From a virus (Duplodnaviria > Heunggongvirae > Uroviricota > Caudoviricetes), in IMG/VR virus record IMGVR_UViG_2648501498_000009: a stretch of DNA of 8,831 nucleotides; one strand, written 5' to 3'. The position numbers were made by a program, and so were the translations under genes. Shown here piece by piece: positions 7,756 through 8,831 of this stretch (the first letter of the stretch is position 1; every line of letters begins with the position of its first letter). Below the pieces are notes generated by a model, which was not told the DNA's origin, made no database searches, and saw only the letters and a program-made list of their open reading frames with translations.

Positions 7756-8118
7756 ATGACAAATACAGCAAAAATACTCAACTTCGGCAGAGGTAACTTT
7801 GCCGAACAGGAGCGTAATGTGGCAGATCTCGATGATGGTTACGCCAGACTATCAAATATGCTGCTTGAGGCTTATTCAGGCGCAGATCTGACCAAGCGAC
7901 AGTTTAAAGTGCTGCTTGCCATTCTGCGTAAAACCTATGGGTGGAATAAACCAATGGACAGAATCACCGATTCTCAACTTAGTGAGATTACAAAGTTACC
8001 TGTCAAACGATGCAATGAAGCCAAGTTAGAGCTCGTCAGAATGAATATTATCAAGCAGCAAGGCGGCATGTTTGGACCAAATAAAAACATCTCAGAATGG
8101 TGCATCCCTCAAAACGAG
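7756..8118 (+). pseudogene. O: Replication initiator O, N-terminal 121 codons only; interrupted by the IS50-like element
   Basis: Good RBS AGGAG (7745-7749). MTNTAKILNFGRGNFAEQERNVADLDDGYARLSNMLLEAYSGADLTKRQFKVLLAILRKTYGWNKPMDR…SEWCIPQNE matches the lambda O N-terminus. Homology stops at 8118 and the frame then reads IS sequence to a stop at 8140-8142. Confidence 0.85.
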
Positions 8119-8831
8119 CTGTCTCTTGATCAGATCTCCTGATCAAGAGACTTCATCACCAGGTAACCCTCAACCATATCCTGAAGTCTGAACCAGCCAT
8201 CCCACATGACGACCCAACCGGGACGGCCTGTGCGTTTGCTGTCATGCCATCGCCCCAGTTTCGCCAGTTTCAGACTGGCCCATTTCAGTGTCGGCGCCTG
8301 TGACGGAAGCGGTTTTCCTTCCAGCTTCACCCACAGCAGTTTCCACTCTGTCGGCGTCAGTATTTTCTCACAGCTGTCATTTTGTGTTTCTTCACTGATA
8401 CCTCCCTGCCGCAGGCCCAGCACCCGCACCGCGATGAACGCCTTGATAACCACCATACGTTCCAGGTTATCCCGGGTCTGCATTCTCAGTGATTCCACAC
8501 ATGTACCACCACTTTTCCACGCCTTATGATATTCCTCTATCAGCCAGCGTCGTTCGTAGTGGCTGACGATACGCCGCGCATCGGCGGCACACGCCACTTT
8601 TTCTGACGTCAGCAGATGCCAGCAGGCACCGTCCTCTGCCTGCTCCCGGCAACAGACATACGTGAGCGGGAGCGCCTGGCCGCTGTTGTCGGGATTTTTT
8701 ATGCTGACTTCGCTGTAACTGATGAACATCCGGGCCTGGCGGGCAGCCCGTCCGCCTTTTTGCATCACATTCAGCGTGTGGCTTCCCGCGGTTGCCAGGA
8801 CTTCCGGCAGTTCGAAGAGCTTGCCGGGTGC
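8119..8831 (-). mobile_element. IS50-like (IS4-family) insertion sequence, partial; inside-end-type terminus at 8119-8137
   Basis: 8119-8137 is CTGTCTCTTGATCAGATCT, identical to the IS50 inside end as I recall it. The transposase stop TGA lies within it, exactly as in IS50. The element continues past the window end. Confidence 0.8.
8130..8831 (-). CDS. tnp: IS4-family (IS50/Tn5-like) DDE transposase, C-terminal ~233 codons; N-terminus lies beyond the window
   Basis: The frame is open from the window edge (…APGKLFELPEVLATAGSHTLN-MMQKGG…). It contains the YREK signature (YERRWLIEEYHKAWK) and NLERMV. It is clearly homologous to, but diverged from, Tn5 Tnp as I recall it. Confidence 0.85.
   Translation of the reverse strand, partial: APGKLFELPEVLATAGSHTLNVMQKGGRAARQARMFISYSEVSIKNPDNSGQALPLTYVCCREQAEDGACWHLLTSEKVACAADARRIVSHYERRWLIEEYHKAWKSGGTCVESLRMQTRDNLERMVVIKAFIAVRVLGLRQGGISEETQNDSCEKILTPTEWKLLWVKLEGKPLPSQAPTLKWASLKLAKLGRWHDSKRTGRPGWVVMWDGWFRLQDMVEGYLVMKSLDQEI

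Follow-up and report, generated by a model that had tools for sequence, protein, structure and literature searches.

ISEc13 within gene O of a lambdoid prophage: a probable simple insertion into the outermost iteron of a six-iteron replication origin

The analysis presented here deals with the right end of a lambdoid prophage fragment, where the gene of the replication initiator O passes directly into an insertion sequence (IS), ISEc13. The window, i.e. the whole stretch of 8,831 bp that was analysed (IMG/VR record IMGVR_UViG_2648501498_000009), is a complete draft contig (JHSF01000110.1, assembly GCA_001265845.1) and comprises the left arm together with the immunity and early region of the prophage; it is limited by int at one end and by the IS at the other. 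An earlier note made from the letters of this DNA had proposed that an IS50-like element entered O within the replication origin and left the prophage replication-dead. As an overall proposal, a single simple insertion of ISEc13 breaking O is regarded here as likely, and its parts are graded separately below.

Gene O and the adjoining element

The following features are found at the junction:
7756-8118, plus strand: codons 1-121 of O, the N-terminal fragment of a lambda-type replication initiator, assigned by the match to lambda O
7756-8142, plus strand: chimeric open reading frame (ORF) of 128 aa, composed of O(1-121), LSLDQIS and a stop
8104-8118: first 15 of 18 bp of the outermost ori iteron (1''), ATCCCTCAAAACGAG, assigned by lambda annotation and six-iteron reconstruction
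8110-8118: 9-bp target-site duplication, left copy, CAAAACGAG; its counterpart lies past the opposite IS end in contig L015 (see below)
8119-8831, minus strand: ISEc13 (IS4 family, IS50-like), 713 of 1,550 bp, inside end first, cut by the contig end
8119-8137, plus strand: 19-bp terminal repeat CTGTCTCTTGATCAGATCT, equal to the IS50 inside end at 19 of 19 positions
8121-8151: palindrome with two 13-nt perfect arms, GTCTCTTGATCAG ... CTGATCAAGAGAC (the scan counts 14 pairs)
8130-8831, minus strand, directed toward O: last 233 codons of the ISEc13 transposase gene, in an open frame up to the contig end

Translation of 7756-8118 reproduces residues 1-121 of lambda O with the single change G17E, and at the nucleotide level 358 of 363 positions are identical to lambda. 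In a megablast comparison with lambda (J02459) and more than 500 other phage records, phage homology comes to an end exactly at 8118, corresponding to lambda 39048, just where the earlier note had placed it. The lambda record assigns ori iteron 1 to 39034-39051 (18 bp, ATCCCTCAAAACGAGGGA) with the break falling after base 15 of 18, and lambda O does read ...CCTCAAAACGAG at the break codon, as that note had it. Beyond residue 121 the O frame gains seven residues coded by the IS and meets a stop at 8140-8142, which bears out the proposed truncation. The product is devoid of everything from the iteron-encoded linker onward, and full-length O with its C-terminal P-interacting domain is not found in the window, the C-terminal part lying beyond the IS. 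Pfam domain Phage_rep_O (PF04492) is complete at residues 22-115 (profile positions 2-95 of 95, E=9e-37), in agreement with the suggestion that the N-terminal O fragment could still be made from the promoter pR; a sequence search of PDB with the O N-terminal domain returned no match.

The identical 128-aa chimeric ORF recurs in datasets of NCBI, Logan and ENA, on 19 contigs in all, which come from both isolates and metagenomes. In eight of them that were compared, the flanks depart from the window by 0-3 nt, save for one divergence at a contig end, and all readable siblings break off 27-95 nt inside the IS. Since the same chimeric ORF recurs on 19 contigs with near-identical flanks, the junction is no assembly artefact; the O-junction allele is clonally spread, ENA metagenome assemblies included.

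The element itself is ISEc13 and not IS50. Its 713 nt coincide at 707 positions with the intact 1,550-bp copy of E. coli A25, and the PGAP label reads "IS4-like element ISEc13 family transposase". The 19-mer, into which O homology runs straight as stated earlier, was matched 0 times in 200 shuffles of the window. Because identity to IS50 stops right after this 19-mer, the element has to be called IS50-like without being IS50: the resemblance pointed out in the earlier note holds for the exact inside end and the Tn5-like transposase, and the identity of the element is a different one. The sequence used for this check was a 121-nt stretch starting with the 19-mer, which we took to be the IS50 inside-end region; searched against plasmids, it matched 243 records (231 at 99% identity or above), and in one inspected plasmid it lies 18 bp from aph(3')-IIa, with the gene transcribed away from it as in the Tn5 arrangement.

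Intact ISEc13 copies in E. coli A25 (L001) and E2348/69 (L002) have a length of 1,550 bp and perfect 9-bp duplications. One of their termini equals the IS50 inside end, and the opposite one reads CTGTCTCTTATACACAAAT, which matches the presumed outside end of IS50 at 17 of 19 positions. Terminal inverted repeats of IS50 type (about 19 bp, CTGTCTCTT...) are present, only the inside end falling in the window. The available part of the transposase aligns with residues 255-469 of Tn5 transposase (E=5e-36), and the Y-R-E-K positions are conserved as judged from the C-terminal 233 residues, the two catalytic D residues being outside the window. At the locus under study the IS copy is seen in parts, namely 713 bp in the window and 95 and 87 nt of the two ends in contigs of a sister genome, and in related strains ISEc13 is a multicopy element occupying up to 33 places per genome.

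Several structural peculiarities accompany the IS ends. The palindrome at 8121-8151 carries three GATC (Dam) sites at 8128, 8133 and 8141. Together with the iteron-derived CTCGTTTT (8110-8120) it scores, by consensus match, as an intrinsic-terminator-like hairpin just past the transposase stop on the minus strand. The terminal 16 nt of the ISEc13 outside end (TGTGTATAAGAGACAG) are the same as the Tn5 mosaic end of Nextera libraries, and adapter read-through thus mimics ISEc13 junctions, being a trap for automated IS-junction searches. Lambda O in its turn contains a 17/19 match to the inside end shared by IS50 and ISEc13 (CTGTCGCTTGGTCAGATCT, 7884-7902, minus strand, lambda 38814-38832). By chance, about 1e-4 such look-alikes would be expected per window, and none of 200 shuffles produced one. 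The look-alike lies 216 bp upstream of the real IS end, points away from it and is probably a coincidence.

The far side of the element and the reconstructed origin

The window alone cannot settle whether the insertion is simple, because the assembler stopped inside a multicopy IS. In IMG/VR genome 2645728091 two contigs carry the junctions, L016 the left and L015 the right one. The former is identical to the window over 885-8118 (7,234 nt) and continues with 95 nt of the IS. At the right junction, a simple insertion is expected to join the outside end of the IS to CAAAACGAGGGAGGTTCC, i.e. to read ...GAGACAG / CAAAACGAG / GGAGGTTCC, and L015 (minus strand) reads ...GGATTTGTGTATAAGAGACAG / CAAAACGAG / GGAGGTTCCCC..., with the extended downstream sequence GGAGGTTCCCCTAAAATGAGGGATATCCCTCAAAACGAGGGAAAATCCCC. 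Because the 9 bp CAAAACGAG adjoin both IS ends, the arrangement is that of a single transposition and not of a deletion. Thus the other IS end and the 9-bp target-site duplication that the earlier note had proposed to look for are both present in L015, and the DNA past the IS is related to O and ori, as that note assumed. Beyond the junction, L015 contains the open O remainder, then P (233 aa, Pfam Phage_lambda_P), and further downstream NinB, MT-A70 methylase, NinF, NinG, phosphatase, Q, holin, lysozyme, Rz, Rha and Nu1, all open.

The right side is also represented by a 186-aa O fragment of the exact right-side sequence, starting with ATG inside iteron 1', in NCBI, Logan and ENA data, i.e. 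in the same source types as the left-junction ORF. This start implies that upstream O is missing, because a gene caller would choose that ATG only then. Accordingly placed in the sister genome by direct reading, the right junction is inferred for the window's own genome.

As for the length of the duplication, 9 bp are also repeated around the intact copy L033, like around L001 and L002, while three other ISEc13 copies (L020, L026 and L030) overlap by only 8 bp. These 8-bp overlaps are found at CCCC-N10-GGGG sites, e.g. CCCC T GCATAAAC A GGGG, and in all three cases each IS end keeps a constant distance from its C-run; they reflect either variable duplication length or systematic loss of 1 nt.

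Search for the junctions in other collections brought mainly negative results. An exact scan of species-representative genomes for the left junction gave 0 matches, as did an exact scan of genome contigs for the right one (IS end plus CAAAACGAG). When the window junction, a synthetic right junction and the junction of the L037 type (described below) were compared by megablast with 5,426 complete E. coli genomes, none was covered, the nearest complete-genome prophages being mosaics of only 97-98% identity. Two JGI metagenome matches to the right junction (L013:5872-5929 and L014:8510-8539) were rejected as read-through into Nextera adapters, whose mosaic end is identical to the last 16 nt of the ISEc13 outside end. 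Protein search with the predicted right-junction ORF produced full-length O and contig-edge fragments, none with an IS-derived leader, and by exact look-up the GTG-start 199-aa right-junction ORF and several contig-edge versions were absent from the collection.

Two of the other contigs deviate from the window elsewhere. The last 94 nt of L016 leave the window sequence to the left of 885, inside ORF 822-1424 (about 790-885), and end with ...AAAATCATTAGGGGATTCATCAG, which we take to be an IS10 end. It appears that the sister prophage gained a second IS at window position ~885, which fits a prophage no longer purified by lytic growth. Contig L006 also departs from the window at its contig end (~4305-4330).

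In order to characterize the origin, the window was joined to L015, and the IS and one copy of the duplication were removed. The reconstructed O is an uninterrupted sequence of 312 aa, corresponding to lambda O with a 13-residue insert IPQNEGGSPKMRD and a few substitutions including G17E; at the DNA level, six matches to the iterons, which are imperfect palindromes of 18-19 bp within O, are revealed against four in lambda, and the AT-rich tract behind them is near-identical to that of lambda, with two substitutions in the stretch read. Phages P27 and 933W, which carry Shiga toxin (Stx) genes, are described as having, ahead of iterons 1-4, two more iterons named 1'' and 1', together with an O protein longer by 13 aa and bearing G17E (PMC7466680); L37I, reported for both of them, is absent from the reconstructed O. 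As read from this reconstruction, the origin is of the six-iteron Stx-phage type rather than the four-iteron lambda ori. The IS sits in the outermost iteron 1'', and iterons 1', 1, 2, 3 and 4 with the AT-rich tract stay contiguous to the right of it. Thus the earlier placement of the IS in the first ori iteron agrees with the sequence of lambda iteron 1, which in this origin corresponds to the outermost one of six. The statement that the origin is split needs more serious correction: iteron 1'' is interrupted indeed, but the phrase overstates the damage in cis, because the core iterons, 1' and the AT-rich region remain together and the origin is only clipped. According to footprinting data, efficient binding takes place only at the four iterons beside the AT-rich region, 1'' being the weakest (PMC7466680), and three iterons were enough for lambda growth in earlier work cited in the same paper.

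Target sites, replication and rival explanations

In BLAST comparisons with other ISEc13 copies, some alignments extended 13-17 nt past the IS end, which prompted an inspection of target sites. Placing the IS end further left than 8119 was rejected, the flanks showing chance-like similarity of target sites. Two IMG/VR scans for IS ends and two chromosomal copies together gave a sample of 31 non-redundant half-sites. Reading toward either IS end, C occupies positions -13, -12 and -11 in 25, 25 and 24 half-sites, respectively, a pyrimidine is found at -9 in 28 and G or C at -1 in 28, so that the motif is CCC(C/T) at -13 to -10. With three iteron half-sites excluded, C is retained at the same three positions in 23, 23 and 21 of 28 half-sites (binomial P from 5e-10 to 5e-8), and the CCC triplet at -13..-11 is met in 14 of these 28 against 0.45 expected (P=2.7e-18). 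The target motif is thus a strong one: the preferred site begins with a C-run, continues with the roughly 9 bp to be duplicated and closes with a G-run, and the iterons match it. No description of this target motif was met in the searchable literature, where ISEc13 is mentioned only in passing and no paper, to judge by its title, deals with target choice; if confirmed, it would explain ISEc13 hot spots and predict origins and palindromes at risk.

Among the 19,660 positions of the reconstructed prophage, a position weight matrix trained without the iteron sites puts the real site at rank 14 and the corresponding position in the last iteron at rank 11, these being the two best-scoring iteron positions. 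This last iteron is occupied in another case: in L037 (1-330), L043 and L045, from IMG genomes 2648501400, 2645727604 and 2579778631, the ISEc13 outside end adjoins CAAAACAGG / GGGACACAAAAGACAC at the same offset. These contigs belong to different prophages, because their downstream O leaves L015 within 132 nt. For the same divergence, derivation of the L037-type junction from the window's insertion by inter-iteron deletion was rejected as the main reading, and the second iteron hit is apparently independent of that in the window.

Two non-iteron prophage sites, …CGCCCC TGCATAAAC… and …TTGCCCC TCCGCACAG…, are used in both orientations, the inside end being found in L017, L019, L024, L028, L030 and L031 against the outside end in L040 for one of them, and in L026 against L035 for the other. 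Such pairs arise either from repeated use of hot spots or from inversions between IS copies.

The succession of events was probably as follows. One 1,550-bp ISEc13, moving by Tn5/IS50-like cut-and-paste, inserted itself into gene O of a lambdoid prophage with duplication of CAAAACGAG, landing in the middle of O at the outermost of six iterons. The site was probably chosen owing to the preference of ISEc13 for a C-run, about 9 bp and a G-run, since the iteron, TCCCT-CAAAACGAG-GGA, has such a form; we infer this role of the motif, and selection for O-inactivating insertions could contribute to the observed sites. O is thereby split into a 121-residue N-terminal piece with a 7-residue IS tail behind pR and a promoter-distal C-terminal piece. 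The N-terminal part of lambda O binds iterons and its C-terminal part recruits the P-DnaB complex. Assembly of oriλ-O and then of oriλ-O-P-DnaB is described in a review (PMC5043065). With full-length initiator unobtainable, the induced prophage should fail to begin its own theta replication, while five iterons with the AT-rich region, P, the nin genes, Q, lysis genes and Nu1 remain intact, as seen in the sister genome.

The decisive lesion is the broken O gene, i.e. a defect in trans, and the epithet "replication-dead" used in the earlier note would be sound for self-replication, judging by lambda genetics. With the core origin intact, the defect is expected to be recessive; in principle, a phage residing in the same cell or infecting it could complement the defect in trans with an O of the same specificity, and precise excision between the 9-bp repeats, a rare event, could restore O.

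Several circumstances weigh against the scheme as a whole. The right junction is known from the sister genome, and the window's own contig ends inside the IS; neither junction is present in the 5,426 complete E. coli genomes, species-representative genomes or JGI metagenome contigs. O could come from another lambdoid prophage of the host cell, and transcription from pR, once modified by N, might read through the IS. Disruption of the extra iterons 1'/1'' blocked establishment of a P27-derived plasmid (PMC7466680), and in view of these data the origin may be weakened in cis by the loss of iteron 1''. As to the choice of site, shuffled sequences exceed the maxima of the matrix, which is only moderately specific, and the simple consensus is not enriched in the prophage, where about 4 loose matches per 19.7 kb occur as expected by chance. 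Neither IMG/VR nor the complete E. coli genomes yielded a left junction for the second iteron hit, and this event could be a rearrangement instead of a clean insertion.

Among rival explanations, it is very unlikely that the window presents a truncated remnant at a deletion or rearrangement junction in its own genome, the remainder of O, ori and P having been removed or relocated when the IS caused a deletion or an inversion or when ISEc13 copies recombined. Such an origin is compatible with the unseen right side of the window and with the abundance of ISEc13 in related genomes, and IMG/VR copies L025 and L029, having no matching duplications, indicate that events of this kind do occur; nevertheless, the sister genome with its identical 7.2-kb flank carries the perfect 9-bp duplication, the O remainder and P, and the O fragment with the downstream start is found in exact sequence in all three data sources. 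An artefact, either a contig chimeric at the repeat or a Tn5/Nextera adapter taken for an IS end, is scarcely conceivable. The identity of the outside-end 16 nt with the mosaic end and the two adapter-derived metagenome matches make the question legitimate, but the window has the inside end rather than the mosaic end, then 713 nt of ISEc13 at 99% identity, and its junction is repeated on the 19 contigs in independent isolate and metagenome datasets obtained with different assemblers.

It seems doubtful that the insertion took an essentially random position and that the iteron hits reflect selection for hosts with a disabled prophage instead of target preference. Inactivation of O plausibly benefits the host, and the low specificity of the matrix, outscored by shuffles, together with the chance-level count of loose consensus matches is in line with this suggestion. 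Selection alone, though, would tolerate insertions anywhere in P or over the initial ~900 bp of O, whereas both iteron hits share the same palindrome offset and fall on the two best-scoring iteron positions; in about 20 unrelated sites the spacing between the C-run and either IS end is constant, with the P-value for CCC given above, and two non-iteron sites are occupied in both orientations.

Neighbouring genes, significance and known systems

Other features of the window, in gene order from its start, are listed below:
int, partial, followed by xis
after xis: several small ORFs, including one for a DksA-like zinc-finger protein
exo (YqaJ), bet (RecT), gam, kil and cIII, in that order
4660-4718: cIII thermoregulator RNA (Rfam)
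5800-6099, minus strand: N-like antiterminator
6418-7068, minus strand: LexA-type repressor, 216 aa
7149-7334: cro
7443-7721: cII, followed by O from 7756
7753-7781, minus strand: candidate pO-like promoter TTGAGT-17-CATAAT with TG, from a consensus scan only, at the position of the lambda oop promoter

Closest to the window overall are lambda imm21/DE3, 434 and lambda, in mosaic blocks of 96-98% identity. The cIII thermoregulator is the only Rfam family detected by a scan of the window, which gave no match to the OOP family. The candidate oop promoter is left uninterrupted by the IS, and its spacing to the O start presumably equals that in lambda. Between xis and the exo-bet block, a 200-aa ORF (822-1424, plus strand) is oriented opposite to its neighbours. 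Pfam gave no match for it; among PHROGs, a family of unknown function (phrog_1416) is matched by the last 88 residues and not by the rest, which points to a moron-like gene that is mosaic or fused.

ISEc13, gene O and this type of origin are known, and IS elements commonly inactivate prophage genes; the target motif of ISEc13 and its coincidence with iterons are new, being a modest observation. In annotation, the prophage is better described as O-defective than as a phage that can be induced and replicate itself. It might be mobilised or replicated with the help of a related phage, which bears on the mobility of lambdoid prophages in pathogenic E. coli.

A further extension, unlikely in our opinion, is that ISEc13 acts as a sequence-directed inactivator of lambdoid prophage replication and that the resulting locus is retained for the benefit of the host. 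If iterons mimic the ISEc13 target, ori would be hit repeatedly in ISEc13-rich lineages. The retained locus would then comprise pR-cro-cII-oop-O(1-121), encoding a complete iteron-binding domain without the P-recruiting one, plus the nearby iterons, and the benefit would lie in a disarmed prophage and possibly in interference with incoming phages of the same O/ori type. Such interference, a speculative idea, would be exerted by the retained O N-terminal domain, oop and the nearby iterons; an inhibition phenotype of plasmid-borne oop and iterons (PMC3349717) or a dominant-negative initiator would offer an analogue.

Comparison with known copies of ISEc13 in E. coli E2348/69, A25 and many others demonstrates 99% identity over 713 nt, the same ends, the same 1,550-bp architecture and 9-bp duplications; the insertion site alone is different, and no complete E. 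coli genome among those searched has it. With IS50 of Tn5 the element shares the 19-bp inside end, a homologous C-terminal half of the transposase with YREK, and 9-bp duplications, but under half of the aligned transposase positions are identical, as judged by eye from the alignment. The target consensus of Tn5 is weak (A-GNTYWRANC-T), and the C-run and G-run flanks of ISEc13 are unlike it. A parallel in this respect is IS231A of the IS4 family, which according to Hallet et al. reportedly prefers GGG(N)5CCC targets: both are IS4-family elements with a palindromic motif of G/C-runs, for which natural palindromes become hot spots, while ISEc13 differs in polarity and spacing (CCC-N~9-GGG) with staggered cuts abutting the runs.

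Classical lambda mutants include r14 and r32, which are IS2 insertions in the cII-O region, r93, r96 and r99, which are ori- deletions between iterons, and O ambers. Like the present allele, they represent lesions of cII-O-ori that abolish replication and illustrate iterons as substrates for recombination or insertion; the classical ones are all of laboratory origin, and the ori- deletions among them are cis-dominant and leave O intact, whereas the present allele is a natural one that breaks O and spares the core ori. As for the six-iteron origins of Stx phages P27 and 933W (PMC7466680), the likeness extends to the order 1'', 1', 1, 2, 3, 4, AT-rich, to the 13-residue insert and to G17E, and the differences consist in the interruption of iteron 1'' by the IS, in immunity resembling phage 21/lambda imm21, and in a window without stx.

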